Part shown: one piece after another, positions 8,574-62,673 of the stretch | Numbering within the stretch: the first letter of the stretch is position 1 | How the letters are laid out: every line of letters starts with the position of its first letter | From: Deltaproteobacteria bacterium | GTDB taxonomy: Bacteria > UBA10199 > DSSB01 > JACPFA01 | Length of the DNA: 64,000 bases | Reading direction: 5' to 3' | Assembly: GCA_016183235.1 (NCBI GenBank) | Contig: JACPFA010000016.1 | Coordinates: forward strand, 2,834-66,833 | Made by a program: the position numbers and the translations under genes | The notes under the pieces: model-generated | Databases searched by the model: none | What the model was told of the DNA's origin: nothing | Seen by the model: only the letters and a program-made list of their open reading frames with translations

Positions 8574-8583
8574 TATAAAACTG

Positions 8584-8651
8584 AAGATTGCTTTGCTATC
8601 ATGGATCCCGGATCACCGGATCAAGTCCGGTGCAGGCTCGTCCGGGATGAC
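8584..8651. repeat. REP-like palindromic element (GGATCCCGG...CCGGGATGAC type)
   Basis: gaagattgctttgctatcatggatcccggatcaccggatcaagtccggtgcaggctcgtccgggatgac. Its left flank is shared with the element at 12553. Confidence 0.8.
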
Positions 8652-8657
8652 ATGGAG

Positions 8658-9362: not shown

Positions 9363-9398
9363 GAGATTGCTTCGGGCCTCATGGGCCCTCGCAATGAC
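9363..9398. repeat. REP unit (gagattgc...cgcaatgac type), upstream flank of the RAYT gene
   Basis: gagattgcttcgggcctcatgggccctcgcaatgac, an imperfect hairpin (ATTGC..GGGCC/GGCCC..GCAAT). Confidence 0.85.
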
Positions 9399-9441
9399 AG
9401 ATTCAAAATCCTATATTGACTCGATGCGGCACTTTCAGTAG

Positions 9442-9942
9442 ATGTTAACTATGCCTCGACCTAAACGAATTTTAATTCCGAATGCTTATTATTATATCTC
9501 TAATGAGAGCAAGGGGAAGAGATCTGCCTTTAGCTCTGCTACCGACAAAAAATATTTTACCGACCTCCTTCATGAGATCGCCAAAGAGTTCAAACTAAAA
9601 GTTTTAGAATATAGTTTGACCCGCCAGGGCTATCATTTGTTGATCCAGATGCACGGGAAAAACCTTCCCCTGGCTTTGCGTTCGCTTAATGGTATCTATA
9701 CCCAAGATTACAATCGAAAGTACCAAAAGAAAGGGTCTTTGTTCAAAGGGCGTTACAAATCGGTGCTTATGAGTGAGAGGCCCTATGTTACACAGATTGC
9801 AAATTATATCCGTAGTTTTGCCAAAAAATCTTTGCTTTCCAAGGTGAGTGAAGACGTTTTGCAAAGGCTCAACCCTAAAAAATGGCCTAGTGTTTTGGGG
9901 AGTGAAAAGTTTTTGAAGAAGATGAAGAAGAAGACGAGATAA
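9442..9942 (+). CDS. REP-associated tyrosine transposase (RAYT, IS200-like Y1 family), probably degenerate
   Basis: By-eye alignment to the COG1943/RAYT pattern: PRPKRI..., LNGIYTQDYNRKYQKKGSLFKGRYKS, ANYI (Tyr kept). The HUH position reads G-Y-H instead of H-x-H, and the usual NPVRA tail is missing. The start may be the ATG at 9451. Confidence 0.75.
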   Translation: MLTMPRPKRILIPNAYYYISNESKGKRSAFSSATDKKYFTDLLHEIAKEFKLKVLEYSLTRQGYHLLIQMHGKNLPLALRSLNGIYTQDYNRKYQKKGSLFKGRYKSVLMSERPYVTQIANYIRSFAKKSLLSKVSEDVLQRLNPKKWPSVLGSEKFLKKMKKKTR

Positions 9943-9949
9943 AGTGGAA

Positions 9950-9989
9950 GAGATTGCCACGCTCGCCAATGGGGCTCGCTCGCAATGAC
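9950..9989. repeat. REP unit, downstream flank of the RAYT gene
   Basis: gagattgccacgctcgccaatggggctcgctcgcaatgac, in the same orientation as the unit at 9363. Confidence 0.85.
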
Positions 9990-9996
9990 ATGTTTT

Positions 9997-12552: not shown

Positions 12553-12688
12553 GAAGATCGCTTCGCTATCATGGATCCCTGCCTTCGCAGGGATGACATT
12601 GTCCAGAATGAATGGATGCCGGATCAAGTCCGGCACGACGGTATTGCGTCATCCCGGGCAAGCCTGCCCCGGACTTGATCCGGGGACC
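12553..12688. repeat. composite REP cluster (GGATCCCTGCCTTCGCAGGGATGAC unit plus CCGGATCAAGTCCGG/CCGGACTTGATCCGG inverted pair plus GTCATCCCGGG...CCCGGGATCC unit)
   Basis: Read directly from the sequence. It fills the whole glnE-aat intergenic gap. Confidence 0.85.
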
Positions 12689-12715
12689 CGGGATCCATAT
12701 ATGACATTCTATAAC

Positions 12716-13348: not shown

Positions 13349-13409
13349 GAATATGATGATACAATGAAAAGAGGGAATAAAAAAGCCCGGCGAAAAAACT
13401 GGCTTTCTT

Positions 13410-13488
13410 GTCATTGCGAGCCCAACGGGCGAAGCAATCTCCTATATTTAACCGATGAGATTGCTTCGCCCGTTGGGCTCGCAATGAC
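13410..13488. repeat. REP doublet: perfect 32-nt inverted arms
   Basis: gtcattgcgagcccaacgggcgaagcaatctc, a 15-nt loop, then gagattgcttcgcccgttgggctcgcaatgac. An extra partial gcgcaatgac lies at ~13509-13518. Confidence 0.95.
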
Positions 13489-13519
13489 AGAGGGGTCCCT
13501 CTAGAACGCGCAATGACAA

Positions 13520-14957: not shown

Positions 14958-14987
14958 TGGATCCCGGGGGTCTAAGCCCGGGATGAC
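14958..14987. repeat. REP unit (ATGGATCCCGGG...CCCGGGATGAC)
   Basis: atggatcccgggggtctaagcccgggatgac, between the glnA start and the 3' end of the 1500-aa gene. Confidence 0.8.
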
Positions 14988-15078
14988 GGTGTCGCAACTT
15001 CGTTAATCCAGGTGCAAGATTATTGTCTAGAACAAATTCCCTTTGTGATGATTTTTTTTTGGGTAGTTAGCCTAATAT

Positions 15079-24048: not shown

Positions 24049-27000
24049 GTGATGCAACGTTACACCCCGAAACCCGGGAGCTTATTCCCCTTCATCCTCA
24101 TCGCTCTGCTTGCCCTCAGTTATTTTGGATTAATACCATCCACGGCGTTAGGACAAGCACTAACCACACGTCAGGCACCGGCACCTATTCACAGTAATTT
24201 TTGCCCGGCTTACACTCAATCAGATTTATACCGGCCTCGTTTACAGCAAGTCACGGTGGGACCGCAAGACAATTGGATTAGCGCCATTCGCGGTGCACTC
24301 CCTGGCACGGAAATTTTGTTGCAAGATGGGGATTATTTTTTGGGCAGCACTTACACAGTCACCATTCCTGAAGAAGTAACCGTGCGTTCGGCCAGCGGGA
24401 ATCGCAATGCCGTAACTATTATTGGCCAGGGTTACGGGCCGGGGGCAGAGGCTTTAATGGTTACGGGCAAAAATGTAACCGTGGCCGATCTTTCGATCAC
24501 TCAGGTGCGCAACCATGGGATTGCCATCAAGGGCGAATCAGGGGCTCACGGAACTCATATTTACAATGTCAATCTCTATGACATTGGAACGCAAATGATC
24601 AAAGGGACCAAAGGCCCGCAAGATGCGGTCATCGCGTGTTCGGCAATGGGTTACAGCGCCAATGGCGTGCGAGGAGATTATATCGCCGCCATCGATGTTC
24701 ATGGGCCTCAAGATTTATTGATTCGCGACAATTACATTTACAACTTCATGGGAGAAGGCACGGGCTGTGAAGTTGATATTGATTGTGGCGCTTACATGTC
24801 GCAACACCCCGCCATCTTAATTTGGAACGAAGGGGCACGTGGCACCATTATTGAACGCAACGTGATGATCGAAAATTATCGTAGCATTGCCCTTGGCCTC
24901 GACCGAGGCCATGAAGATGGGATTGTTCGAAACAATTTTATTTTTCGTTCTCAGCCTGGTGATGCAGGGATCGAATTGCGCACGGCTAACAACACCTTGG
25001 TTGCCCACAATACCGTGTATGTTGAAAATTATATTGGCGCCATCGAGCTAAGCCCTGGGACCAACAATCGAATTTACAATAATTTTATCAGCGCCTATTT
25101 CCGGACACGCGATGGGGCCACGTTTACCGAAGATGGGAATTTATTTGATTTAGAACCTGGTGATTTGCTCCAGGCAGGCGATTCGCATCTGCTCGACAAT
25201 TCCCGCGCCATTGGCGCCGGAGTTTCGCTGCCCGACATTTTAACTTATGTTACTGACGACATCGATGGTGATTTGCGCGATGGGCGCTATGACATAGGTG
25301 CTGACCAATTTGTTGAAATAGCCCCACCACCCGAGCCCTTGTTTAGCCAAGCTATTCCCATCACCCAAATTATCGCCAAGACGAGCGAAAACCAAGGCAC
25401 GCGCCATGTGTTTAACGCCAAGAATGAACTTTCTTATTTTGACTTCACTCCTCCTCAAGACGGCTGGTATCGATTCCAAGTTAATTTGGGGGCTAATGCA
25501 CTTACCACTAAGTATTGGTTTGCTCTTCAAACGAACAATATTGTGGATGGAAGGATTATCCAATCTCAAAACGTTGATTCGATTGAAGCCAAAAATTATG
25601 ATTTTTACCGTCATTTAACGGCTGGGAAAAAGACCCGGGTTAATCTTATTTCCGGCACCCGCAATGGAATGGAGCATTATCTCTATGGGGTGAATATTCA
25701 AGAGACTCATGCCTTTGATGAAACCCCGCCTGAAACGACACTTAATATTGTGCGCTATGAAACAAAATTGACGTTTAAAATTAGCACCAACGAACCTCAT
25801 ACAATTTTATTTTACCTCAATGGTGCGTTAAAATCATCCAATCACACCTTAACCACTTCACGTAAATTTACCTTTACGGGCTTAACCCGTTCAACAATTT
25901 ACACTTACAAAATTATTACTAAAGATGCGTTTGGGAATGCTGACACGACTGAAGGCGAAGTAAACACCTTGCCCGATCCACTACCACCACCTCCACCACC
26001 TGAACCTACGCCGACTCCAACGCCCGTGCCTCCTCCACCGCCACCGCCTGCGCCCACACCGACACCTGTGCCACCGCCGCCTGCACCCACACCTACGCCC
26101 GTACCTCCTCCTGCGCCGACACCAACACCTGTACCACCGCCCCCCGTACCCACACCTACGCCCGTACCTCCACCGCCTGCACCTACACCGACACCACAAC
26201 CGGTGCCTAATCCAACACCTCCCGCACCCACTCCAACGCCTGTACCACCTCCACCGGTTGACGACAGCATTGATGTACCGCTCACCGTGCACTTCCCCAG
26301 TGGGGCCAATGAATCGGTCCCTGTCACCGTGGGAGTGCCTGTGCCACTCGATGCAACCGGGCCCTTCACCGTGGTGAACACAAACAACGTCGCCGTGCCC
26401 ACCCAAGTGCGTGAACAAACCCGCTCTAGCCATCAATGGTTATTGGTCGATTTCCAAGCCGAACCTAATCAAAGTTATCGCCTCAAAAAAGGCAACAGCC
26501 CGGCCGGAAATTACCAAATGAATGTCATCAACCAGGGTAGTGCTGGAATCACAGTCAACACCGGAGTCACCGAATTTAAATTACCGGCCGATACCCGATT
26601 GTTTGAACAAGTGCGTGATGCCAATGGCAATGCATTGATCGATCAAGCCGGCTTTGGTGCCAACGTAAGCCCTGCTCTCTTGGAAATCGCCGAAAATGGC
26701 CCCTTGCACACCATGGTTAAAGTCACGGCACCTCGTGCCATTCAAGGGCTTGACCTGGTGGCGAGGCTGCATTTTTACGCTGGCAAATCTTATTCCCGCG
26801 TCAGAATCACTTTGGTGAACCACAACAACTGCACGTGGAGTAGTGGTCAGCCGCGTTGTAATAATATTGGCGATACTGGCACGATTTCTTTTGAAGATGT
26901 TTCTTGGTCGCTCACGGTGCATAACCCAGAGGCCAGTCGTAACGAAGTGCTTTATCAAGATTCAAGCGGAACCAATGGTTGGAACTACTACCAAGGCCGA

Positions 27001-30000
27001 AACCCACGGATGCAAGGAGGGGTTAGCTTCCGTGGTTACCGCCGTTATGTGAATGGTGCCGTGGCCGAATCGGGAGATGCAGCACCTGGCACCTTAAGTT
27101 TTGGCGGCATTCAAATGGAAGTGCCTTATTTTCGCGAAATGTTCCCCAAGGCCTTGCGTGCCCAAAATGGCCTGTTGTCTTTTGCTATCTTCCCCACCGA
27201 GTTCCGGCCCAATAACTCAAGCACCTCGCACGCGATGCGACCGGGCGAACAAACCACCGTGGACGTGTGGGTCAATACCGGGAATAACCGTTCCCCTGGC
27301 AACATGGTACTGGCCTATCCCAGCCTGTCTTACTTACGCAGCACCCATGCCTTGGGCTTTGTCGGCCCACGGGTGGATGGGCAATTCTCGGATTATGAAA
27401 GCTATATCGATGCCCAATACGATTTCAGCAAGGCCAAAATTACCGGCCCCAATAATTGCCTTAATGCAGAATGTACCATCACCGGTGCCATCAATCGCTT
27501 TGATCACTATGGTTGGACCGACTTTGGCGACATCCCGCAAGACTTTGAACAAGGCAGTGCACCTTACAATTTAAAATACGATGTGAGTTTGGGCTTTATC
27601 TATCAGTGTATTCGTACCGGCAGCCCCTTCTATTGTCGCGATGCCGTAACTTCAAACCTACACTTTGCTAACGTTGACATCATGCACTCCACGGTACGCG
27701 GCTATAACAACCCCAACCGCGATTGGATGGTGGGTGGTTCTTGGGGTCATAGTCTGCACGATGAATCGGGCATCTCGAACCCCCATCGCAACAATAACAA
27801 CCCACACCCTGACACCACCTGGGGTGGAGCCGGGCTCTCGGCCTTTGCACTCTTGACCGGCGACGACATGGTGCGCGATGCAAGCCTAGAACTTGCCGAC
27901 AACATTCTATGGCGAGCTCAAAATTCTAACGACACGGGTTGTGATGGACAAGCTTGGGGCGGCGGGAGCGACAATGGTTACGCCATCCTCGGCACCAATC
28001 CACGAGCCGCGGGGAATATCGGTCGCTTACTCAATTGGGCCTTTAAACTCACCGGCGATATCAATTATTTGAACGGCGCCGCGGGCACTTCCCGTTGGGT
28101 GCAATGTGAACGCGCCAACCTCACCTGCGGAAGTTGGGGCGTTGCCCTTTCGGCCCGCGCTATTGGTGAATACATCATCACGACTCGCGATGCCGGAATT
28201 AGCGAAGACCCCAATGCCATTCCTGCCATGAACACCTTGCTTAATTCCATGGCCAGCAACACCACCCGAAGCGGTGACCGAGCTTGGTTTGGCGCTTGCA
28301 CTGGCACCCAGGAAATCAATAACTGGATGGTTCTGGCCGCTGATGCCTTTAGTTTGGGTTATGCTGTGACCGGCAATCAAACTTGGCTAGACGACTATGC
28401 TCGCCCCAGTTTCAACACTGGCCAAACCGATCCTTTCTATAATAACGACTCGTTACACTACCACAGCACCAAAGAATTGGTGAACTCGGTAGGCGCAGGC
28501 ACGACTTTCTTGCACTTTGCCAACAACGGTCAACCCGTGCCAGACCCTGTTCCAACGCCACCACCCCCTGTGCCTACACCAACACCTGTGCCACCACCGC
28601 CGCCTGCACCCACACCAACACCTGTGCCACCACCTCCAGCTCCAACGCCCACTCCTACGCCGGTGCCTCCTCCACCCGCACCCACTCCACAACCTGGGCC
28701 ATTCCAAGTAAGTTTAAGCGATATCGAAGACACCTATTTGAGTGGCATCGACTGGACCTACATTCCCGAAACAGTCGGCAACTTTGGTAATGACGATATC
28801 ATTTATCTCTACAACGTAAACTACGCCAGTTCACAAATCCGGATCGGGCTCATTAAGATGAATCTAACTCCGATCGACTCACAAAATCAGATCGATCGCG
28901 CCATCTTGCATCTTCCTGTGGTCAGCGGCAACCCCACACAGCTTAAAGCCTACGAAGTTACGGCTAATTGGAAAGAAGGCACCTGCGTCAATCAATATGA
29001 ATGCACGGCCGATGGTACCACCTGGATTTCTCGTGGCCCAGGCTATGGTAATTGGGCAACAGCGGGCGGTGATTTCAACGCCGCCACGGCAGTGAATGGC
29101 CAACTCAGCAACGGAGAAGTGTTGTTTGACATCACGAATAGTGTCAACAAATGGGTGCAAAACCCCAACACAAACTTTGGTTTAACTTTGCGGGATAGCA
29201 ATGCATGGGAAGAAATCAGTCTAGGGTCTTCAGAAAATGGCACTTTGTCATTACGACCCTATCTCGTAGTGCAAGGAAATGGCAGTGGAAGCACACCACC
29301 ACCCGCACCGACGCCTGTACCAACTCCCACACCTACACCTGTGCCACCTCCACCACCACCTCCTGCACCCACACCCACGCCAACACCGACGCCCGTGCCA
29401 CCACCGCCTCCGCCGCCTCCGCCCCCACCTACACCACAACCTGAACCGGTGGATTTCAATCCAGAAAACGAGCGAGTCATCACGCCTACCACCAACAACG
29501 TTAATCTAGCCCAGCCCGCCAATCTGCAAGTGTTCCATCGTTCCGGTCAAACCTTCCTCACTTGGAACGAAAATACCGGCATCAGCGGAGAACGCTACAT
29601 TGTATATCGTCACACCGCACCGATCAACAGCAGCAATCTCAGTAGCGCCATCCCCATTGCCATCGTCAAAGAAGGTTCGAGTTATTATCGCATTGAAGCC
29701 GTGCGCTCGGGCAGCCGGCAATCCCGTTATATGATTCAAGATCTAGGGACCCAGCTGAGTAACACCACAGGTCTCTTTGTTTACACCACCAAACAAAATG
29801 GCGATTTTTACTACGCTGTAACCACGGCCAATGCCACTTCAGAAAATAAATCCGCCTTGGGTTCGACTAACAGCGTAAGTGCCACTATAAGTGAAACGGT
29901 GGCTGACCCTCAGCCCGTCTTAGTGTGGCGTGGTGCTGGCCTTTCCGGCAATACAACCTTATGCGGTTTGGTTTACACGCAATTTATGGATTATCATAAT

Positions 30001-31272
30001 TGGAACCCCACCTTCCATGGTTATGCCTACAATTATTCGGTCACTCTACCTTCTTGTAACTACCAACCCGACGCTCAAAATCCCTTGTCAGTCGCGCTCT
30101 ACATCGAAGGCAAGAACAGCCGCTATACCAACAGTGTCTATTACGCCATGAACAACAGTATTTATATCAGTGCCGAATCCGCTTGTTCGATTCCAGATTA
30201 TGGCTGCGATAGTGAACAAGATTGGTATTGGGGATTTAGTTGTAAACACAATTTTAATGGCCCGCTTGCCGAAGGTGCCAGTACTAATCAATTTAATTAC
30301 AATGTCACCCCAGGCCCGGTTTGCAATTACACCGAATTGCGAATTTTGCGCGCTGTGAAAGACACCCTACGACAATGGGCGGGCGATCCAAAACGCGTCT
30401 ATGTTTACGGCCACTCCATGGGTGGTTCAGGCGCCATCACCCTTGCCATGCACTATCCAAAAATCTTCTCCATCGTCTATGCTAGCGAAGCCATGACCGA
30501 TTACGGTAATTCTGGGAATTGGCTTGGAGAACTAACCCGCTTTTGGGGATCCCCCAACGACTCAAGAAACACCGTACGTAACTTAGGCATTCGTTGGCTC
30601 GATGGCACCATGACCAACGAACACTTAAAGCAATTCAATGACCGTATGAATGTGTTTACCTTCATGGATCACCAAGCCCTCGCCTCCGATCCTGATTACA
30701 TGGATGAAGACAATGGATTTATCATTGCGGTTCATGGCACCAACGACAATGTGATCCCAGCGGCCACCCAAGGCTATGGCTTCTACGAAGAAATGAACCA
30801 AGGCCACCGCGGTTTCATTGGCATGGTAAACAGCGACGACCACATCTCGCAAATCGCCATGGGTTGGAACCCCAGCACCCCCATCAACTTTAGAAAATTG
30901 GTAGGCTATTATGATGGCCAAGAGCACTTCTATAACCAAAGTTACCCGGCTCTCTCCAACATCTCAGGCACAAATTATGCGGTAACCTCGGGCACGGCCA
31001 ATTACAATCGCAATGTTTATTGGGATCAATACACAGTGGTTGATCAAGTCGATCGTTACGAGATCACCTTGCAAGGCCTTTCGGGCGCAGTCACCGCCGA
31101 CGTCACCCCACGCCGCTTACAAGACTTTAGCCCCCAAGCCGGCGAAGTCTTGCAATGGCAAAATCTGCAAAGTGGGGAACAAGGCCTAATTACGGTTGAC
31201 CCCTTCGGCCTAATCACAATCCCTCAAATGAGAATCGTGTCTGGCAACAACCGATTGGTGATTACGAGGTGA
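24049..31272 (+). CDS. giant secreted multidomain enzyme (2407 aa): beta-helix domain, FN3-like module, large unassigned central domain, DNRLRE-like module and C-terminal alpha/beta-hydrolase (esterase), joined by three PT-rich linkers
   Basis: Signal peptide. Beta-helix repeats (NVTVADLSI, NNFIF, HNTVYV, NNFIS). Nucleophile elbow VYVYGHSMGGSGA. Pro/Thr linkers. The DNRLRE-like call (LIKMNL...AILHLPV...FGLTLRD) is tentative. Confidence 0.85.
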   Translation: MMQRYTPKPGSLFPFILIALLALSYFGLIPSTALGQALTTRQAPAPIHSNFCPAYTQSDLYRPRLQQVTVGPQDNWISAIRGALPGTEILLQDGDYFLGSTYTVTIPEEVTVRSASGNRNAVTIIGQGYGPGAEALMVTGKNVTVADLSITQVRNHGIAIKGESGAHGTHIYNVNLYDIGTQMIKGTKGPQDAVIACSAMGYSANGVRGDYIAAIDVHGPQDLLIRDNYIYNFMGEGTGCEVDIDCGAYMSQHPAILIWNEGARGTIIERNVMIENYRSIALGLDRGHEDGIVRNNFIFRSQPGDAGIELRTANNTLVAHNTVYVENYIGAIELSPGTNNRIYNNFISAYFRTRDGATFTEDGNLFDLEPGDLLQAGDSHLLDNSRAIGAGVSLPDILTYVTDDIDGDLRDGRYDIGADQFVEIAPPPEPLFSQAIPITQIIAKTSENQGTRHVFNAKNELSYFDFTPPQDGWYRFQVNLGANALTTKYWFALQTNNIVDGRIIQSQNVDSIEAKNYDFYRHLTAGKKTRVNLISGTRNGMEHYLYGVNIQETHAFDETPPETTLNIVRYETKLTFKISTNEPHTILFYLNGALKSSNHTLTTSRKFTFTGLTRSTIYTYKIITKDAFGNADTTEGEVNTLPDPLPPPPPPEPTPTPTPVPPPPPPPAPTPTPVPPPPAPTPTPVPPPAPTPTPVPPPPVPTPTPVPPPPAPTPTPQPVPNPTPPAPTPTPVPPPPVDDSIDVPLTVHFPSGANESVPVTVGVPVPLDATGPFTVVNTNNVAVPTQVREQTRSSHQWLLVDFQAEPNQSYRLKKGNSPAGNYQMNVINQGSAGITVNTGVTEFKLPADTRLFEQVRDANGNALIDQAGFGANVSPALLEIAENGPLHTMVKVTAPRAIQGLDLVARLHFYAGKSYSRVRITLVNHNNCTWSSGQPRCNNIGDTGTISFEDVSWSLTVHNPEASRNEVLYQDSSGTNGWNYYQGRNPRMQGGVSFRGYRRYVNGAVAESGDAAPGTLSFGGIQMEVPYFREMFPKALRAQNGLLSFAIFPTEFRPNNSSTSHAMRPGEQTTVDVWVNTGNNRSPGNMVLAYPSLSYLRSTHALGFVGPRVDGQFSDYESYIDAQYDFSKAKITGPNNCLNAECTITGAINRFDHYGWTDFGDIPQDFEQGSAPYNLKYDVSLGFIYQCIRTGSPFYCRDAVTSNLHFANVDIMHSTVRGYNNPNRDWMVGGSWGHSLHDESGISNPHRNNNNPHPDTTWGGAGLSAFALLTGDDMVRDASLELADNILWRAQNSNDTGCDGQAWGGGSDNGYAILGTNPRAAGNIGRLLNWAFKLTGDINYLNGAAGTSRWVQCERANLTCGSWGVALSARAIGEYIITTRDAGISEDPNAIPAMNTLLNSMASNTTRSGDRAWFGACTGTQEINNWMVLAADAFSLGYAVTGNQTWLDDYARPSFNTGQTDPFYNNDSLHYHSTKELVNSVGAGTTFLHFANNGQPVPDPVPTPPPPVPTPTPVPPPPPAPTPTPVPPPPAPTPTPTPVPPPPAPTPQPGPFQVSLSDIEDTYLSGIDWTYIPETVGNFGNDDIIYLYNVNYASSQIRIGLIKMNLTPIDSQNQIDRAILHLPVVSGNPTQLKAYEVTANWKEGTCVNQYECTADGTTWISRGPGYGNWATAGGDFNAATAVNGQLSNGEVLFDITNSVNKWVQNPNTNFGLTLRDSNAWEEISLGSSENGTLSLRPYLVVQGNGSGSTPPPAPTPVPTPTPTPVPPPPPPPAPTPTPTPTPVPPPPPPPPPPPTPQPEPVDFNPENERVITPTTNNVNLAQPANLQVFHRSGQTFLTWNENTGISGERYIVYRHTAPINSSNLSSAIPIAIVKEGSSYYRIEAVRSGSRQSRYMIQDLGTQLSNTTGLFVYTTKQNGDFYYAVTTANATSENKSALGSTNSVSATISETVADPQPVLVWRGAGLSGNTTLCGLVYTQFMDYHNWNPTFHGYAYNYSVTLPSCNYQPDAQNPLSVALYIEGKNSRYTNSVYYAMNNSIYISAESACSIPDYGCDSEQDWYWGFSCKHNFNGPLAEGASTNQFNYNVTPGPVCNYTELRILRAVKDTLRQWAGDPKRVYVYGHSMGGSGAITLAMHYPKIFSIVYASEAMTDYGNSGNWLGELTRFWGSPNDSRNTVRNLGIRWLDGTMTNEHLKQFNDRMNVFTFMDHQALASDPDYMDEDNGFIIAVHGTNDNVIPAATQGYGFYEEMNQGHRGFIGMVNSDDHISQIAMGWNPSTPINFRKLVGYYDGQEHFYNQSYPALSNISGTNYAVTSGTANYNRNVYWDQYTVVDQVDRYEITLQGLSGAVTADVTPRRLQDFSPQAGEVLQWQNLQSGEQGLITVDPFGLITIPQMRIVSGNNRLVITR
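25972..26257 (+). repeat. PT-rich linker 1 (low-complexity coding repeat, PTPTPVPPPP(A/V) units)
   Basis: Read from the sequence. It generates spurious Gly/Arg/Trp-rich antisense ORFs. Confidence 0.9.
28534..28700 (+). repeat. PT-rich linker 2
   Basis: PVPDPVPTPPPPVPTPTPVPPPPPAPTPTPVPPPPAPTPTPTPVPPPPAPTPQPGP. Confidence 0.9.
29293..29447 (+). repeat. PT-rich linker 3
   Basis: TPPPAPTPVPTPTPTPVPPPPPPPAPTPTPTPTPVPPPPPPPPPPPTPQPEP. Confidence 0.9.
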
Positions 31273-34023: not shown

Positions 34024-34233
34024 ATGACGAAGGTACGATTTTCAGACGATCGATTATCCTAAAAACGGCAGTTGAAATCGCTTCTCTGTCATTGCGAGCC
34101 CAGTAGGGCGAAGCAATCTCAATTGGCCCAAGTGAGATTGCTTCACCCTGCTGGTGCAGGGTTCGCAATGACAAATCGTGCATTATTTCAGAAGAAATTA
34201 TTGATAAATAGTAGCAAAATCGTACCTCCGTCA
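34024..34233. mobile_element. MITE-like element, copy 2, interrupted by ~140 bp that includes a REP doublet
   Basis: Termini atgacgaaggtacgatttt ... aaaatcgtacctccgtcat. The core halves match copy 3 on either side of the insert. Confidence 0.75.
34088..34172. repeat. REP doublet nested inside MITE copy 2
   Basis: gtcattgcgagcccagtagggcgaagcaatctc ... gagattgcttcaccctgctggtgcagggttcgcaatgac. Confidence 0.9.
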
Positions 34234-34272: not shown

Positions 34273-34725
34273 ATGACTTCAGTTATGGCTTCATTTAGAA
34301 TAAAATCCCAAATGAATAAAAATCTTATCCAAAAATTAGGGTGTTTTTTTCAAAAGAGAAGGGAAATTAAGTTGGCTTATCTTTTTGGTTCAGAGGCTAA
34401 ACGTCCTCATCAACCTTCTCGCGACGTGGACATTGCTGTTTTGTTGAATAAATCACTGCGTGGTTTGCAGCAATTTGATTATCGTGTTCAGCTTTGCCAA
34501 GGATTGGAAGATTTTTTGCATTCTTTTAAACAAACCTTGAAAGTTGATTTGGTACTTCTCAATGAAGCAGATCCTTTTTTAACCTATCAGGTGTTGAAAT
34601 ATGGGCAGCTTCTCTTTGAACGTCAAAAAAAAAGTGATCGAGATTTTAAAGTGAGATCTATGACACGTTATTTTGATGCAAAACCTCTCCATGATTTTTT
34701 CTTCGAACGGGCGTTAAAACATTAG
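34273..34725 (+). CDS. mntA: nucleotidyltransferase-domain antitoxin (MntA, type VII TA)
   Basis: Pol-beta NTase motif LFGSEAK...RDVDIAVLL. Sits 2 bp upstream of the HEPN gene. The true start may be the ATG at 34312 (MNKNLIQ). Confidence 0.8.
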   Translation: MTSVMASFRIKSQMNKNLIQKLGCFFQKRREIKLAYLFGSEAKRPHQPSRDVDIAVLLNKSLRGLQQFDYRVQLCQGLEDFLHSFKQTLKVDLVLLNEADPFLTYQVLKYGQLLFERQKKSDRDFKVRSMTRYFDAKPLHDFFFERALKH

Positions 34726-34727
34726 TT

Positions 34728-35144
34728 ATGGTTGATCGATTACTCATTCAACGAAAAATCTTACTACTTGACGAGAAAAAAGCTGCTCTAAAGTCGTTTG
34801 CCCTTAAAACATATAAAGAATTTTTAAAGGGACCTTACCCTAAGGCGGTAGAAAAACTTCTTCAAGAGATGGTGGAAATTTGTCTAGATATTGGAAAGCA
34901 TCTTATAGCTGATGAAGGATGGGAATTTGCCAATGAGAGCCGGGACATTTTTCAGAGATTAGCAGAAAAGAAAGTCATTTCCAAAAAATGTTTAAAGACT
35001 ATGCTCAAAATGGTGGGGTTTCGAAATCTCGTTGTTCATTTGTATGAACAAATTGATTCCAAAATCGTCTACAAAATTTATCAAAGACATTTAGGTGATT
35101 TTGCAAATTTTGCAAAAAAGATTTTTCATTACCTTCAAAAGTAG
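34728..35144 (+). CDS. hepT: HEPN/DUF86 toxin (HepT)
   Basis: R-x4-H motif in GFRNLVVHLYEQID. The size and the pairing with an NTase gene also fit. Confidence 0.8.
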   Translation: MVDRLLIQRKILLLDEKKAALKSFALKTYKEFLKGPYPKAVEKLLQEMVEICLDIGKHLIADEGWEFANESRDIFQRLAEKKVISKKCLKTMLKMVGFRNLVVHLYEQIDSKIVYKIYQRHLGDFANFAKKIFHYLQK

Positions 35145-39334: not shown

Positions 39335-39467
39335 TAACCAGTCAGTGAACGGGTGAAACAAAGCGTTGTGTCATTCCTGCGAAGGCAGGAATCCAGTCTT
39401 TTTTCAGTATTTCTGGATCCCCGCCCTCGCGGGGATGACAGCCAACCACCCGTTCACTGACTGGTTA
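39335..39467. repeat. nested palindromic element: outer 21-bp inverted repeat enclosing a REP-type doublet
   Basis: Outer arms are taaccagtcagtgaacgggtg ... cacccgttcactgactggtta. Inner units are gtcattcctgcgaaggcaggaatccag ... ctggatccccgccctcgcggggatgac. Confidence 0.85.
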
Positions 39468-44264: not shown

Positions 44265-44383
44265 AAATTTATTCTATACTTTTGTAAAAATTGTCATAAA
44301 CACCATGATCTTTTTTGGTTCTTTCGTCAATAAGTTGCAAATATGGATGGAAAAATAACTCAATATGATTTGGTGTGATGTTT

Positions 44384-44472
44384 GTCATCCCTGCGAAGGC
44401 AGGGATCCAGTGCAGAAAAGATTAGATAGAGTCAATGAATCCAGATTGGATCCCTGCCTTCGCAGGGATGAC
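44384..44472. repeat. REP doublet (GTCATCCCTGCGAAGGCAGGGATCCA perfect 26-nt inverted arms)
   Basis: gtcatccctgcgaaggcagggatcca ... tggatccctgccttcgcagggatgac. Confidence 0.95.
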
Positions 44473-44525
44473 ATTCAGTCTGATTTGCAACTTATTGATG
44501 AATGAACCATAAAATCGAGAACTTT

Positions 44526-47723: not shown

Positions 47724-47738
47724 TTGAGGGGGTACTCT

Positions 47739-48176
47739 ATGAGTCTTGCCATTGACACCAATCTCTTTCTTTATGCCCACATCGAGGATTTTTTTGAACA
47801 TACCAAGGCAAGATCTTTTTTAAAAAAAATCTTGCAACAAAAAGATTTTTTTTACATTAGTTGGCAAGTTTACTATGAATACGTACGACTAACCACACAC
47901 CCACGCGTGCTAAAAAAACCCCTAAGCGTCAAGCAAGCCTGCGCTGATTTGTCGCCTTATTTAAAACATCCTCATTGTCGTCTATTATTAGAATCTCCCC
48001 ACCACGAGGAAATTCTAAATGAGGTTCTCCAAAACCTACCGGGTGCCAAGGGAAATTTTATTCATGATTGTCATTATGCTGCCTTACTTAAAGAAAATGG
48101 AATTACCAAAATTGCAACGGCAGACACGGATTTTAAAAAATTCGATTTCCTTGAAGTGCTAAACCCCTGTCTTTAA
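47739..48176 (+). CDS. vapC: PIN-domain toxin VapC
   Basis: Acidic residues in LAIDTN, FIHDCHYAAL and ATADTDF. RBS gaggggg before the ATG at 47739. Confidence 0.8.
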   Translation: MSLAIDTNLFLYAHIEDFFEHTKARSFLKKILQQKDFFYISWQVYYEYVRLTTHPRVLKKPLSVKQACADLSPYLKHPHCRLLLESPHHEEILNEVLQNLPGAKGNFIHDCHYAALLKENGITKIATADTDFKKFDFLEVLNPCL

Positions 48177-57783: not shown

Positions 57784-57908
57784 GGGGACCTCTAAAAACG
57801 ACCCATCTGCCGTGTTGCCCGCAAAGCCGCGATCCTCACGTATTTCCATATACGCTCCGGTCGCGTCTTTGCGGGCGCCTTGCATCTGGGCCCTTTTTAG
57901 AGGTCCCC
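57784..57908. repeat. long imperfect palindrome (~59-nt arms) upstream of tgt; a different family from 56467
   Basis: ggggacctctaaaaacgacccatctgcc...gcccgcaaag... pairs with ...ctttgcgggcgcc...ctttttagaggtcccc. Confidence 0.85.
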
Positions 57909-58743: not shown

Positions 58744-58798
58744 TGGTGCTTGCTAAGAGTTGACAATCCACAGCAGCCTTGTCATATCCTCATTCGTC

Positions 58799-59842
58799 AT
58801 GCAGCCCATATCAACTGCTGAATTTAATCAGCTCACCAAACTTCAATCTAAATCCATCCAAGTAAAAAAACTTTTTGGCGAAGCCAGTTACCGAGAATAT
58901 TATCGCCTCACCACCCATGACGGCCAGGCCTATATTCTCATGCAAATCCCCGCCGGGAAATGGAGCGTATCGGAAGAAATTACTCATTCCAACCCTCCCC
59001 CTACCGAACTACCTTTTTTAAACATTCAGCGTTTTTTGCAACAAAATGAATTGCCGGTTCCACAAGTGTTGGGGGTTGACCAAGCAAAAGGTTGGATTGT
59101 GTTACAAGATTTAGGCGACCAGTCCTTAGAGTCTTTGATCCAAAATGCGGCCCCCGAGATGATTTTTTTCTTCTACAAACAGGCGATCGATTTGTTGGTT
59201 CGCCTACAAAAAACGTCTGCAACGCCTAACGCTGATTGTCAGGCCTTTTCCCGCCGCTTTGATTTCAAATTATTATTTTGGGAATTCGAACATTTTTTAG
59301 AATATGGCATTGAAGATCGATTACAAATCAAAATAAACCCCGAAGATCGCAAAGCCATGCAAACTTGGGGTGAAAAATTATGCCATGAAATCGAAGCCCT
59401 GCCTTATGGTTTTACTCATCGAGACTTTCAAAGCCGCAATCTGATGCTGCATGGCTACGAATTTTATCTGATTGATTTTCAAGATGCTTTGCAAGGCCCA
59501 ATCGTTTACGATTTGGTCGCCTTGTTGAGGGATTCTTATGTCGACTTAAGCATTGCCATGCTTGAACAACTTTTACAAACTTATCAATTGGCTTGCGAAA
59601 AGTCTGGGTTGGCAACGCTAGAAGATAAAATATTCAAAAGAAATTTTTATTTGGTCACTTTACAGCGCAAACTCAAAGATGCGGGCCGTTTTCAATTTAT
59701 TAAAACCATGAAGGGTAATGACAAATTTTTAAAGCATGTGCCAACGTCGTTGAAATATGTAAAAGACGCCTTTGGCCATTTGCCGGAGTATGAACCGTTG
59801 TGGAAATTGATTGGGAAATATTTAGTAGAAATCGTTAATTAA
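58799..59842 (+). CDS. amgK: aminoglycoside-phosphotransferase-fold kinase, AmgK-like (anomeric MurNAc/GlcNAc kinase)
   Basis: GFTHRDFQSRNLML ... LIDFQDALQGPIVYDLVALLRDSY. Followed by a MurU-like nucleotidyltransferase. Start set at the ATG at 58799. Confidence 0.6.
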   Translation: MQPISTAEFNQLTKLQSKSIQVKKLFGEASYREYYRLTTHDGQAYILMQIPAGKWSVSEEITHSNPPPTELPFLNIQRFLQQNELPVPQVLGVDQAKGWIVLQDLGDQSLESLIQNAAPEMIFFFYKQAIDLLVRLQKTSATPNADCQAFSRRFDFKLLFWEFEHFLEYGIEDRLQIKINPEDRKAMQTWGEKLCHEIEALPYGFTHRDFQSRNLMLHGYEFYLIDFQDALQGPIVYDLVALLRDSYVDLSIAMLEQLLQTYQLACEKSGLATLEDKIFKRNFYLVTLQRKLKDAGRFQFIKTMKGNDKFLKHVPTSLKYVKDAFGHLPEYEPLWKLIGKYLVEIVN

Positions 59843-59866
59843 CTGAGGATCTAAAATGTCATTGGT

Positions 59867-59902
59867 GTCATCCCCCGGCTTGACCGGGGGACCCATGATG
59901 AC
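59867..59902. repeat. REP unit (GTCATCCCCCGG...CCGGGGGACCCATGATGAC)
   Basis: gtcatcccccggcttgaccgggggacccatgatgac, which creates the spurious 22-codon N-terminal extension of the next ORF. Confidence 0.8.
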
Positions 59903-59921
59903 GAAGAATCTTCCATTTCAT

Positions 59922-60743
59922 ATGCAAATCACTCAAGCCATTGTTTTAGCAGCCGGCCTTGGGACCCGCTTAAGACCCTTAACTAATCATACAGCTAAAC
60001 CCGCATTAACCGTAGGTGGAATCCCTATCCTTTATTATAATTTGGCTCTCTTGCAACAATATGGCGTTAAAAACATCGTCATCAACTTGCACCATCGTCC
60101 AGAATCTATAAGGAAGATTCTTTCCGCCGGAGGCGGACCAGCCTCTGGCTGGCGCAGACTCAGAATGACATCCATTAATATCTCCTTTTCCCAAGAGAAA
60201 ACTTTGTTAGGCACCGGTGGTGGGATTGTAAAGGCAGCTCGCCTATTCAAAACTGAGCCTTTTCTAGTGCTCAATGGTGACATTCTCACCAATATTAACT
60301 TAGCAAAACTCATCGAGACTCATTTTAAAAAGCAGGCCTTAGCCACTTTGGCCATTGTTGGCCCTGACCAAGCTAAAGTCGCCAATTATATTCATTATAA
60401 TGCAAGGGGTCAGGTCTTAGGGATTGGCCCTCGAGATTGCTTCGCAGACGCTCGCAATGACATCGGTCTGTCATTGCGAGCGTCCGCGAAGCAATCTCGT
60501 CACGGAATTTTTTCCGGAGTTTCAATCATTGATCCAAAACTACTTACTTATTTTGGCAAAAAGAAAATTGGCTGTCTCATTCGCGATTTAATTTTGCCCG
60601 CCATTCAAGACCAACAAAAAATTAGCACCTATCATCATAAGGGATTTTGGTGTGATCTTGGCGACCTAGCCACTTTGAAAAAAGTAAACGCCGCCCTGGG
60701 AAAATTCAACGTAGGCCAAGCTTTCCAGTTGAATGATCATTAG
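59922..60743 (+). CDS. murU: sugar-1-phosphate nucleotidyltransferase, MurU-like, carrying an in-frame REP-doublet insertion
   Basis: AIVLAAGLGTRLRPLTNHTAKPAL, LGTGGGI, LVLNGDIL. The 22-aa insert RDCFADARNDIGLSLRASAKQS is encoded by the REP doublet at 60433-60498. Confidence 0.65.
   Translation: MQITQAIVLAAGLGTRLRPLTNHTAKPALTVGGIPILYYNLALLQQYGVKNIVINLHHRPESIRKILSAGGGPASGWRRLRMTSINISFSQEKTLLGTGGGIVKAARLFKTEPFLVLNGDILTNINLAKLIETHFKKQALATLAIVGPDQAKVANYIHYNARGQVLGIGPRDCFADARNDIGLSLRASAKQSRHGIFSGVSIIDPKLLTYFGKKKIGCLIRDLILPAIQDQQKISTYHHKGFWCDLGDLATLKKVNAALGKFNVGQAFQLNDH
60433..60498. repeat. REP doublet (66 bp) located inside a coding sequence, in frame
   Basis: gagattgcttcgcagacgctcgcaatgac atcggtct gtcattgcgagcgtccgcgaagcaatctc. 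Confidence 0.9.
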
Positions 60744-61133
60744 TCGGTGAGGCTAGGATCGTAACACTGATAAAGGTCACTTTTCCGAGTACCTCCTGTA
60801 TCAATCCATTTAAACAACATCTCAATGGGGATGTCTCGAAATACCAATTTGTCTTCAATCGTATAGTTCCCATTAGTAACCTCTTGATCCAGCACCCTCG
60901 CAGCCTGGAGAACCTGCACTCCAACTTGATCCCATGTATTTGCCGCCAAGGTTCCATCGAGATGATAAAGACGATTGCACAGTATAAATCTGACCTTGAA
61001 GGACCTTTTGTAAATCTTTAAGCGACTTTGCAAAGTCAACCATCTCGGGAAAGGCGTGTATTGCCCCTATATGTAAACCTTGTGTAGGTTGGTTAAAAGT
61101 CACACCATAAGTTTGTTGATTGTCTATCAACAC
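60740..61133 (-). pseudogene. small gene apparently split by a frameshift near 60965-60985 (or two heavily overlapping ORFs)
   Basis: ORF 61133..60873 is protein-like only up to ...GQIYTVQ. ORF 61039..60740 is protein-like only from ...RLYHLDGTL onward. Joined, they give ~130 aa. Confidence 0.4.
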
Positions 61134-61146
61134 AGTGTCATGCCCC

Positions 61147-62673
61147 TCACAAAATATCTATTTCACTTGGCCTTGAAACTTCTTCAAACACTGGCACTAA
61201 AAATAGCACCATTCCACGGCTCACCCCGCTGCCCAATGTAGTAGCGGCTTCGGGGGCGGCTTGAATTATTTTATAACCTACTGCCACTGCTGCAGAAAAA
61301 ACAAGCCCAAAGACTGTACCTTTCACAGTGGGCTCTTGGTACCATGGCTGTGATTCAGTGACCGTAGTGACCGTTGGGTTGGAGGGGGCTCCCCTAGATT
61401 GCTCATTGGGTTGATCATGCCGACCATAGGCCGCTAATATTAGTACCACCTCATCGACATCGGCATTTATGATAGCAGCTCGGTGCAAGATGTCGTTTGT
61501 ACTGATTCTGTCACCAATCCATCGGTGGATCAATCGATCGATCGGTTCAACGCACATAGACGATGTATTGCTAGATCCACGCGATCTACTACGGGCTGCT
61601 CGTGGAAAACGACCACGAGGCTCCGATCTTACAGAAGTAGTGGGGGGACCCTTTGTGTCGTCATCGTTGTCATCTTTATTTCTGTTAAAAATCCACTTGA
61701 ATAAACGAACAAACCATAACCGATCCATTTGCTCAGTCAAAGCGGAAGGGCCAAAAAGCGTCAATGTTCTAACCAAGGCGTAGAGATCATGGCCAAGAGC
61801 CACCCCAGGACCAAACACGCCGGTTAAAAACAATCCCCCTTTGATGATGTTTTTAAAAGAAAATTCTTCACCCTTCAGTTCAACAGCAACGATATGCAGG
61901 GCATTTTCTAATTGATCCAGTTTAAAATTTTGACCATCCTTTGGAAGATTTTCACCACCCTTTAAGTGGTTAATGACTATAGTGATCTCTGTTCGAAGTT
62001 CATAAATACGCGTTGGATCTGCAGCAACATAATAGGTTGAACCGTTTTTGCTTTGCCTAAAATATTGATTGTTAGAATCACCCACCATCACCCGAAACAA
62101 AGCAATCAATTCCTCATTAAGGGGAAAACTAATGGGACGCCAATTATCAGGATCGTATTCAAGTAACAAAGGCGGTGGTTTTGCTAAATACTTGGCAACC
62201 ACCGTTTGTTTTTGTTCTTCAGTGAGTGGGTTCCCTGCATCATCGACCAATGGCCAATTTTCTAATTTGGTAAGATTGGTAAGATCTGGGGTTGGGGGTT
62301 GTCTCTCAGGGGGATGAAACCTAAAGGGAATGTCCGTTAATGGAGATAGGTCAGGTGGGGAAAGGCCAAGACCTGCTTTTAATCCTTTAAGCTGTCTAGC
62401 TACCTCATCTACTTTTCCCTCGGGCGCCCACAAAACTACATAACCCTGGTCCCATCGATAGCACAGCCCCAAGGCCTGCAAGCCCTTCCCTTGAAATAAT
62501 CTAGCGTAACCTCCATCTTGAGAACTATAAACTGTATGACCACCGTTGGCACCATCATTTTCAAAAGAAATGTTGTCTAATTTTTGATACCCTCTTAATG
62601 GCCCATTTTCACAAGACGGATAGAGATTTTGCAATGGATTGTCAGACGAATCATTTCGAATAGGTACATTCAT
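61147..62673 (-). CDS. hypothetical protein (508 aa) with internal hydrophobic hairpin(s) and a charged low-complexity segment
   Basis: No signal peptide. GGLFLTGVFGPGVALGHDLYALVRTLTLFGP, NRNKDDNDDDTKG...RGRFPRAARSRSRGSS, and the C-terminal hydrophobic GTVFGLVFSAAVAVGYKII / GMVLFLVPVF. Confidence 0.7.
   Translation of the reverse strand: MNVPIRNDSSDNPLQNLYPSCENGPLRGYQKLDNISFENDGANGGHTVYSSQDGGYARLFQGKGLQALGLCYRWDQGYVVLWAPEGKVDEVARQLKGLKAGLGLSPPDLSPLTDIPFRFHPPERQPPTPDLTNLTKLENWPLVDDAGNPLTEEQKQTVVAKYLAKPPPLLLEYDPDNWRPISFPLNEELIALFRVMVGDSNNQYFRQSKNGSTYYVAADPTRIYELRTEITIVINHLKGGENLPKDGQNFKLDQLENALHIVAVELKGEEFSFKNIIKGGLFLTGVFGPGVALGHDLYALVRTLTLFGPSALTEQMDRLWFVRLFKWIFNRNKDDNDDDTKGPPTTSVRSEPRGRFPRAARSRSRGSSNTSSMCVEPIDRLIHRWIGDRISTNDILHRAAIINADVDEVVLILAAYGRHDQPNEQSRGAPSNPTVTTVTESQPWYQEPTVKGTVFGLVFSAAVAVGYKIIQAAPEAATTLGSGVSRGMVLFLVPVFEEVSRPSEIDIL

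Follow-up and report, generated by a model that had tools for sequence, protein, structure and literature searches.

A TGTC-tagged palindromic repeat doublet in the reading frame of a murU-like gene from an uncultivated groundwater bacterium

Here we describe a short palindromic element that lies in frame within a murU-like nucleotidyltransferase gene of an uncultivated groundwater bacterium. The DNA analysed is a stretch of 64,000 nucleotides (nt), called the window below, from a Deltaproteobacteria bacterium (GenBank assembly GCA_016183235.1, contig JACPFA010000016.1, positions 2,834 to 66,833); coordinates are those of the window unless another locus is named. The element, at 60433-60498, is a doublet of repetitive extragenic palindromic (REP) units carrying TGTC tags. 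We consider it quite probable that a selfish hairpin dimer of the TGTC-tagged (CGTC) superfamily of REPs inserted into this gene after its lineage had split from that of a sister species, whose orthologous site is empty, and that the enzyme most probably still folds and works. The same gene bears an older in-frame REP unit and is preceded by a third REP in its leader. In other orthologs, the protein loop that received the doublet contains inserts derived from unrelated palindromes.

Results

Anatomy of the doublet

The doublet belongs to a 68-nt near-perfect palindrome (60432-60499). Its 31-nt arms, 60432-60462 and 60469-60499, are 97% complementary, with one mismatch, and are separated by a 6-nt spacer, TCGGTC (60463-60468). 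Each arm holds one 30-nt REP unit, the first in the sense of the minus strand (60433-60462) and the second in the sense of the plus strand (60469-60498), with the layout TGTC-ATTGC-GA-GC-GTCY-GC-GAA-GCAAT-CTC. The TGTC tags of the two units face inward, which makes the doublet a tail-to-tail (TT) dimer; dimers with the tags outward are termed head-to-head (HH). As RNA, the doublet folds into a single hairpin of -60.1 kcal/mol, compared with an average of -28.0 kcal/mol for shuffled sequences (z = -10.7), and none of 200 shuffles folds as well. The 66 nt of the doublet correspond to 22 codons of the open reading frame (ORF) at 59856-60743 and are read as RDCFADARNDIGLSLRASAKQS. Two of the three reading frames through the doublet are open, and the frame actually read is free of stops. 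The initial annotation of this DNA had proposed a 66-nt REP doublet, 22 codons long, in frame within a MurU-like gene, and the palindrome, the family copies described below and the ORF all confirm this.

The host gene and its product

The longest ORF around the murU-like gene covers 59856-60743 (295 codons) and the GenBank annotation 59895-60743 (282 amino acids, aa). In GenBank, an identical protein (100%) is recorded for a metagenome-assembled Deltaproteobacteria bacterium. Counted from the start codon that we consider probable (see below), the coding sequence of this nucleoside diphosphate-sugar nucleotidyltransferase occupies 59922-60743 on the plus strand. Its product matches the Pfam family NTP_transferase (E = 1.2e-24). 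The top matches in a sequence search of the PDB are the Pseudomonas MurU entries 4y7t and 8hhd, and the leading Foldseek matches are the MurU structures 4y7u, 4y7t and 8hhd, with target-normalised template modelling (TM) scores of 0.84-0.87. Directly upstream lies a sugar kinase gene of the APH fold (58760-59842, plus strand; Pfam APH, E = 1.7e-22). The kinase and murU-like pair is kept at the loci of three orthologs (L001, L004 and L005). With MurU of the AmgK-MurU peptidoglycan-recycling bypass (4y7t, 8hhd), the window protein has in common the G-x-G-T-R-x-x-P-L-T motif and the adjoining AmgK-like kinase. However, it is only ~31% identical to MurU, and its top NCBIfam match, MurU (NF045761), scores 131.5 bits, under the equivalog cut-off of 250. 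The kinase likewise has AmgK as its top NCBIfam match, at 151.7 bits against an equivalog cut-off of 550. Because both genes score under these cut-offs, we label them MurU-like and AmgK-like, and the substrate specificity of the former is putative. In 120 homologs, LAAGLGTRLRPLT and other positions are invariant, and all these family-invariant residues are retained in the window protein; the motifs on both sides of the insert are intact, as the initial annotation had stated.

The empty site in a sister species

The closest homolog of the window protein is P0002 (235 aa, 86% aa identity), encoded at locus L001. This groundwater contig is syntenic with the window, with SecD, YajC, TGT, a 255-aa ORF, the kinase and the transferase in the same order, and DNA alignment shows that it does not have the doublet. 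Relative to L001, the window has additional DNA in three places: the leader (23 nt), positions 60130-60153 (24 nt, or 8 codons) and the doublet (a net 54 nt). At this last site, L001 reads CCT CGT GGT GAG ACC AGA CAT GGC (P R G E T R H G) and the window reads CCT CGA [63 nt] CGT CAC GGA. Thus, 63 nt stand for 9 nt of L001 and 21 residues for GET, giving a net gain of 54 nt or 18 aa. The clean 22-aa insertion originally expected from the ORF has to be restated in these terms. Neither a target-site duplication nor a target motif is definable from the empty and filled sites; for the duplication, this is because the CTCG at both ends of the doublet belongs to the palindrome itself. We also considered a derivation of the GACA tag from the GACAT of L001. 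This was dropped, as the CAT-GGC of L001 aligns with the CAC-GGA to the right of the doublet in the window.

Over the whole gene, the window and L001 differ with a dS (synonymous divergence) of 0.82 and a dN/dS (ratio of nonsynonymous to synonymous divergence) of 0.11. A homologous segment in REP-free orthologs, which the initial annotation had named as the finding that would speak against an insertion, occurs in none of the other 118 aligned homologs. This absence, together with the near-perfect arms at a dS of 0.82, speaks for an insertion that took place recently in the window lineage, after the split from the sister species, rather than for a deletion in the latter.

The recipient loop and its repeated invasion

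An AlphaFold2 model was built from the 120-sequence alignment (residue numbers are those of the 282-aa form). Its mean predicted local distance difference test (pLDDT) score is 89.7 and its predicted TM score 0.89, with a core above 90. The only internal blocks with pLDDT below 70 are residues 81-90 (58) and 181-200 (65 and 58), and these coincide with the two REP-derived segments of the protein. The segment encoded by the doublet sits between the strands 173-178 and 202-212. From this model, we infer that the doublet peptide would form a surface loop away from the active site.

Among the 120 homologs, all internal insertions of at least 6 aa fall at one of two sites, consensus positions 67 and 162. 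The insertion at position 67 is found in the window protein only. The loop at position 162, typically 17-21 aa long in homologs, is the only recurrent insertion site and carries insertions in five proteins: the window protein, P0003, P0010, P0020 and P0068. A check for palindromes at the DNA level covered the inserts of P0003, P0010 and P0020. That of P0003 (locus L004) is a 55-nt palindrome, GTAGGGGCGCGGTTGCCGCGCCCGTTA-T-TAATGGGCGCGGCAACCGCGCCCCTAC, with 96% complementarity, and represents an HH dimer of GTAG...CTAC REPs; it is present twice on the same contig (3669-3723 and 5577-5631), once in the gene and once between genes. P0020 (locus L005, 4505-4547) and P0010 (locus L127, 1102-1145) carry G-rich hairpins of the form AAATC..CCCCCCTTT..AAAGGGGGG..GATTT, also written AAATC..CCCCCCTTTGAAAAAGGGGGG..GGGGATTT. 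P0010 is 88% identical to the insert-free P0009 and only 77% identical to P0020; the two inserts are therefore probably independent events, unless a single event was followed by loss. Altogether, three unrelated palindromic types have independently entered one loop: TGTC-tagged units, GTAG-tagged units and G-rich hairpins. The DNA encoding the loop is unconserved among the insert-bearing orthologs, and tolerance at the protein level explains the recurrence better than a DNA target preference does.

An older in-frame unit in the same gene

The layout of the murU units is a form of what we call type A, TGTC-ATTGC-GA-[variable GC hairpin]-GAA-GCAAT-CTC. A subtype, A', has ATTCT/AGAAT where type A has ATTGC/GCAAT. 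One A' unit is found in frame at 60112-60170, on the minus strand of the murU-like gene. It has the form TGTCATTCTGAG-[hairpin]-GAAAGAATCTTCC, in full TGTCATTCTGAG-TCTGCG-CCAGCC-AGAG-GCTGG-TCCGCCTCCGGCG-GAAAGAATCTTCC, and encodes about KILSAGGGPASGWRRLRMT. Only 24 nt of it (60130-60153) are specific to the window; they are an expansion of the apical hairpin and encode GGGPASGW. At the equivalent place, L001 (6191-6225) has a compact 35-nt form, TGTCATTCTGAGTCCAGCAGGACGAAGAATCTTCC. A unit between genes at another related locus (L129), TGTCATTCTGAGCCCAGCAGGGCGAAGAATCTTCC, is identical to this form at 33 of 35 positions, and the stem change between the two is compensatory. The same subtype is also present at L006, the locus of a further related organism, and at loci from other phyla.

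At one stage, this candidate was taken as non-repetitive, its 19-mer GGACCAGCCTCTGGCTGGC being unique in the window; the outer clamps TGTCATTCTGAG / GAAGAATCTTCC, found in L001, L006, L129 and other phyla, overturned that reading. Judged from the sequences, it is an in-frame A' unit older than the split of the two species. The weaker candidate of the initial annotation (~60121-60175) was therefore a genuine REP unit, whereas its extent has moved to 60112-60170 on the minus strand, its age is greater, and all but the 24 nt is shared with the sister species. Its retention in both species, in an intact gene with the low gene-wide dN/dS given above, is the best evidence available that this protein would tolerate REP-derived codons over a long time. 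The unit spans ~11.7 codons, yet the region is only ~2 aa longer than the family consensus, and the KIL codons of the unit fall in a conserved helix. The A' REP thus seems to have overwritten native codons rather than to have added new ones.

The leader REP and the start codon

The third REP lies in the 5' leader of the murU-like gene (59857-59914, plus strand) and is a composite. An outer A' clamp, from TGTCATT at 59857-59863 to GAAGAATCTTCC at 59903-59914, encloses a CGTC-type unit at 59866-59895, TGTC-ATCCCCCGG-CTTGA-CCGGGGGAC-CCA. The leader of L001 has a plain A' unit, 23 nt shorter and without the nested unit. Both upstream ATGs, at 59856 and 59895, are made by, or overlap with, the leader REP, and in L001 they are not in any ORF. 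The start at 59922 (MQITQ), on the other hand, matches the ortholog P0002. Since the upstream ATGs are unconserved in L001, the probable start of the coding sequence is 59922, and the GenBank start at 59895 is probably too early. The false N-terminal extension ascribed in the initial annotation to a REP unit at 59867-59902 is supported by these data, with the unit itself redrawn as 59866-59895, nested in the remnant at 59857-59914.

The leader unit and the older in-frame unit together bracket the first 62 murU-like codons, G-x-G-T-R included, as two inverted A' units with their tags outward. This arrangement is present in both species (59857-59914 on the plus strand and 60112-60170 on the minus strand in the window; 5962-5996 and 6191-6225 in L001). 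The bracketing units are probably two independent insertions.

The repeat family in the window

With up to 2 mismatches allowed, the window contains 10 copies of the core GTCATTGCGAGCG where 0.68 would be expected, and none of 100 shuffles reaches 10. For the tag motif TGTCATYSC, the count is 18 and the expectation 2.0. The census gives about 21 hairpin units, all beginning with TGTC or CGTC: 10 of type A, the A' unit at 60112-60170, and about 10 of types B and C, which have the layout TGTC-ATCCCTGC-GAAG-GCAGGGAT-CCA. About 17 of the 21 are intergenic, and most dimers in the window are HH. For example, an intergenic type A doublet at 13409-13489 is an HH dimer with a 15-nt spacer and 33-nt arms that are 100% complementary, and a second one lies at 34087-34173, also HH. 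Directly adjoining the latter is a toxin-antitoxin-like nucleotidyltransferase-ribonuclease pair of the MNT/HepT type (34273-35144, plus strand). An intergenic CGTC-1-type doublet at 44383-44473, again HH, has a 37-nt spacer and contains at 44383-44409 a unit with the B/C layout given above. Further B/C units are found at 8602-8652, 12572-12598, 12647-12697, 14958-14988 and 39369-39440, in addition to the nested leader unit at 59866-59895. A scan of the whole window against Rfam at gathering thresholds returned no match.

A second gene of the window also carries an in-frame type A unit (8038-8074, minus strand), which encodes LSLRGPEGAAAIS inside a 641-aa hypothetical gene (6648-8573, minus strand). 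The ortholog of this gene, P0122 at L006, is 80% identical, and at the same site its REP segment is 8 codons longer (L006 711-775), with a B-type (CGTC-1-type) unit nested within the A clamp.

Such REP-in-REP composites differ between sister species at three orthologous sites (window 59857-59914 and, on the minus strand, 8583-8652; L001 5962-5996; L006 174-202 and 711-775). In each contrast, one species has a plain A or A' unit, whereas the other, inside the same outer clamp, has a whole B/C unit plus TGATRRY in place of the inner hairpin. This suggests that further REPs land on A-type hairpins or TGTC tags.

The type A clamp in other genomes

When one genome per species was scanned, the type A clamp TGTCATTGCGAG-N4-24-GAAGCAATCTC, with exact matches over 12 and 11 nt, was found at 120 or more loci (L007-L126). 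Among the loci listed, the phyla include Chloroflexota, Patescibacteria, Bacteroidota, Nitrospirota, Omnitrophota, Elusimicrobiota, Firmicutes, Proteobacteria and others. The inner hairpins at these loci are highly variable. Across all loci retrieved, 37 dimers are HH and 7 are TT.

In-frame type A copies were also seen outside the window lineage, and two of them, from other taxa, were kept (42-46% GC, Pfam support). A unit in L017 (2334-2370) lies in the gene for a 941-aa PD-(D/E)XK AddB-like nuclease, and a doublet in L073 (1968-2014 and a downstream partner) lies in the gene for a Wzy_C membrane protein of the O-antigen ligase family. Copies in L066, L080, L105, L070 and L096 were set aside, as stop-free frames are no coding evidence at 61-69% GC.

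A Y1-like gene in the window

The window contains one homolog of the Y1_Tnp (IS200-like) transposases (9451-9942, plus strand; Pfam PF01797, 39.3 bits). Type A units flank it in the same orientation, one on its 5' side (9363-9399, minus strand) and one directly on its 3' side (9950-9990, minus strand). The first is absent from the orthologous locus L129, which in place of the second has an A' unit. The Y1-like protein is truncated (163 aa; most relatives have ~325 aa). Its HUH motif is degenerate, being GYH with the first His lost, where 122 of 151 family sequences have HYH, and the context of its Tyr is YIRSFA compared with YIHxNP in the family. On the NCBIfam model of REP-associated tyrosine transposases (RAYTs), it scores 22 bits against a cut-off of 80. 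Its relatives are flanked not by REPs but by GGGGTCAG terminal inverted repeats (TIRs), and TIR-flanked relatives of this kind have been called the "TIRYT" type (PMC3733652).

The synteny of the gene is kept in L129 and in L133, where the ortholog shows 49% identity and has no REPs nearby. Its neighbours in three related organisms are an outer membrane protein gene upstream and, further on, a Leu/Phe-tRNA-protein transferase gene and a 469-aa ORF of GlnA length. The conserved synteny suggests that the gene has been domesticated. No Y1 gene was found by tblastn and hidden Markov model searches in the 120 REP-bearing loci (~0.93 Mb). In view of the degenerate HUH, the truncation, the TIR-flanked relatives and the unconserved REP flanks, we do not accept the flanking units as evidence that links this gene to the REPs as a RAYT or REPtron, and the "RAYT-type" label initially given to the doublet finds no support here.

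Other features of the window

A PIN-domain gene is present at 47724-48176 (plus strand). The GC content rises to 0.53-0.545 at 26001-30000, compared with ~0.44 elsewhere, and the GC skew there is strongly negative; this segment lies within a 2407-aa ORF (24049-31272, plus strand) whose sole Pfam match is a weak esterase. An imperfect inverted repeat at 57817-57876, with 27-nt arms that are 78% complementary, is located between the TGT gene and the 255-aa ORF and stands outside the TGTC family. Finally, the murU-like gene is followed on its 3' side by ~400 nt without a convincing gene and then by a 508-aa ORF (61147-62673, minus strand) with no Pfam match.

Discussion

We regard the doublet as a selfish REP dimer that was probably absorbed into a working enzyme. 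On this account, REP units and dimers would spread through the genome, and selection would remove the intragenic copies, with the exception of those in tolerant loops that leave the frame intact and bring in no stop. In the murU-like gene, 63 bases would have come in and 9 gone out, which kept the frame; the frame has no stop, and the 21 new residues would be placed between two beta-strands, outside the conserved motifs. We infer that the insert is translated and that the enzyme has retained its activity. The extra peptide would be a passenger loop without a function of its own. The gene would already have borne the older in-frame REP at that time, and would also have gained the leader REP.

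Several points weigh against this account. First, a hairpin of -60 kcal/mol within the mRNA could impede translation or draw RNase III. Second, the surface exposure of the loop and its distance from the active site are read from pLDDT and secondary structure only. Third, because the doublet is young, purifying selection after the insertion is unmeasurable, and a very recent inactivation of the gene would look identical. Fourth, the allele is on record from one assembly only, and exact look-ups of the 295-, 282- and 273-aa forms of the protein returned no independent contig. As a salvage enzyme, MurU may also be dispensable. Finally, synteny ends at the 3' end of the murU-like gene (window 60700-62673 versus L001 6705-8228, L004 and L005): the HAMP-GAF-GGDEF gene found 3' of it in L001, L004 and L005 is missing from the window, and the C-terminal tail of the protein is unlike that of the sister species (GKFNVGQAFQLNDH versus SD).

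Some of these points would also be expected if the murU-like gene were a young pseudogene, recently inactivated or crippled by the insertion and kept in frame by luck. The single mismatch between the arms marks the insert as young, the enzyme family serves salvage, the 3' end is rearranged with a changed tail, and a single assembly has the allele. Nevertheless, we consider this unlikely. The two window-specific indels within the gene, of 24 nt and a net 54 nt, contain no stop and have lengths divisible by 3; for the lengths by themselves, before stops are considered, the chance of this is ~1/9. The invariant residues of the family are all intact, the same loop tolerates inserts in at least four other orthologs, and the older REP has been kept in frame in both species at a dN/dS of 0.11.

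The importance of the insert could also lie in the RNA or DNA rather than in the protein. By offering a target for RNase III, blocking ribosomes or pausing transcription, the 31-bp hairpin might adjust murU expression against that of the kinase, and the peptide would then be a by-product. The extreme stability of the hairpin (z = -10.7) and the third REP, placed in the leader between the kinase and the murU-like gene, are in keeping with such a role, and REP dimers have been viewed as RNA elements and endoribonuclease targets (PMC3733652). However, the insert is unconserved and the sister species does without it, the inserts of other orthologs in the same loop come from unrelated families with different structures, which fits better with tolerance at the protein level, and Rfam gives no match. 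This possibility thus appears improbable, even more so than inactivation.

The opposite polarity, in which the segment is ancestral and was deleted in the sister lineage, is very improbable. Long perfect palindromes are unstable and prone to deletion, and L001 keeps at the site a GAGA...GACAT that loosely resembles a REP terminus. Against this, the other 118 homologs do not have the segment and their loop is typically 17-21 aa, and the arms of an ancestral palindrome would be expected, at a dS of 0.82, to differ by far more than one mismatch. It is scarcely credible that the insert is an assembly artefact of the metagenome, which the single contig on record might suggest. The insert sits in frame and centrally in a 79-kb contig, and on both sides of it the contig is collinear with the ortholog. 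Many further copies of its family are present in the window and in over 100 other genomes, and comparable in-frame counterparts exist in independent assemblies of orthologs.

Returning to the insertion of a selfish dimer, its mode of movement invites a bolder proposal, which we offer only as a long shot. TGTC-tagged REPs in this lineage may insert beside TGTC tags and into A-type hairpins, mobilised by the Y1 protein at 9451-9942 or by an intact paralogue elsewhere. Insertion at such places would explain the nested composites at three sites, the TT arrangement of the murU dimer and the overwriting of native codons. If true, this would be the first transposase link and the first target rule for the orphan CGTC superfamily, Rickettsia palindromic elements (RPEs) included, and such elements would turn out to supply proteins with new loops repeatedly and across phyla.

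Insertions of REPs and RPEs in frame are already established, also for dimers as large as this one (PMC3733652), and the known picture is not changed by our data. It is extended to uncultivated groundwater bacteria and to a variant of the family. What is modestly new is that three unrelated palindromic types converge on one loop, and that the REP variant present across phyla did not turn up in the literature searched. The present case documents selfish palindromic DNA absorbed into a protein, presumably still a working one, with the empty and filled sites both at hand. Moreover, three REP layers lie within one small operon: two in frame, of which the single unit is old and the doublet young, and one in the leader. 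The loop is highly insertion-tolerant, and this may be useful for protein engineering as well as for annotation, since in-frame inserts and false starts made by REPs mislead gene callers. The presence of a 23-nt clamp across phyla, without a linked transposase, bears on how CGTC-type REPs and RPEs move.

Comparison with known repeat systems

The definition of CGTC-tagged REPs comprises an unpaired terminal tag (CGTC, in many cases TGTC), a stem of 8-9 bp whose first pairs are A-T and T-A, a 4-5 nt loop and a 3-nt tail with the consensus CCA (PMC3733652). They are multi-copy and found mostly between genes, their dimers are predominantly HH and rarely TT, and the superfamily is known from several phyla, with several families per genome and without an associated transposase (PMC3733652). 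The units in the window share with it the TGTC/CGTC tag, the AT-starting stem, the 3-nt tail, the intergenic bias, the excess of HH dimers, the presence of more than one family per genome and a range over several phyla. The B/C units (44383-44409, 14958-14988 and 59866-59895) fit the CGTC-1 anatomy exactly. In contrast, type A, to which the murU units belong, departs from the single-stem anatomy: its outer stem (ATTGC/GCAAT) measures 5 bp, it contains an internal loop as well as an inner hairpin that is hypervariable, and its tail is CTC. The murU doublet also has the rare TT arrangement. Type A is therefore best called a variant of the CGTC superfamily. In the searchable literature, the type A sequence was not found, with only unrelated primer coincidences. 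Frame-preserving intragenic copies of the GTAG- and CGTC-tagged REPs are described from several species, "more than 50%" of them being dimers or groups that encode 20-30 aa, and typical type A peptides are absent from the list of intragenic copies in that paper (PMC3733652).

With GTAG REPs, REPINs and the RAYT system, the window elements have in common that short hairpin repeats form inverted doublets. In addition, the Y1-like gene of the window has a unit on either side and a conserved gene neighbourhood, the latter being usual for domesticated RAYTs. However, the tag of the window elements is TGTC and not GTAG, and only the insert of the L004 ortholog has GTAG...CTAC. Fusions of ORFs with miniature inverted-repeat transposable elements (MITEs) and other small repeats, such as Nezha, RUP and BOX (Delihas 2007/2011, PMC3184786), are another parallel, as these too are small non-autonomous repeats in frame with ORFs. 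The elements described here are much shorter than MITEs, with no TIRs around a core and no definable target-site duplication. A MITE reading of the doublet was rejected: the entire element consists of hairpin units, and the terminal CTCG is part of the palindrome.

The closest parallel proposed at the outset was with the RPEs of Rickettsia, and it has stood up. According to the accounts of Ogata et al. (2000) given in PMC3733652 and PMC3184786, RPEs are in-frame palindromes in conserved protein genes, absent from orthologs and compatible with a functional protein. By description, the murU doublet is alike: its gene is a conserved one, the frame continues through it, and the closest ortholog does without it. 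It differs in size, as RPE-1 measures ~105-146 nt in the accounts consulted, compared with 30 nt for the units in the window and 66 nt for the doublet, and its host is a free-living groundwater bacterium rather than an obligate intracellular one. The initial annotation had further set the doublet apart from the RPEs as a REP-type repeat. This contrast does not hold, because Di Nocera, De Gregorio and Rocco (2013) place RPE-4 and RPE-6 of Rickettsia conorii, together with dRS3 of Neisseria, in the CGTC superfamily (PMC3733652), and the elements of the window share with that superfamily the TGTC tag, the AT stem and, in types B and C, the CCA tail.

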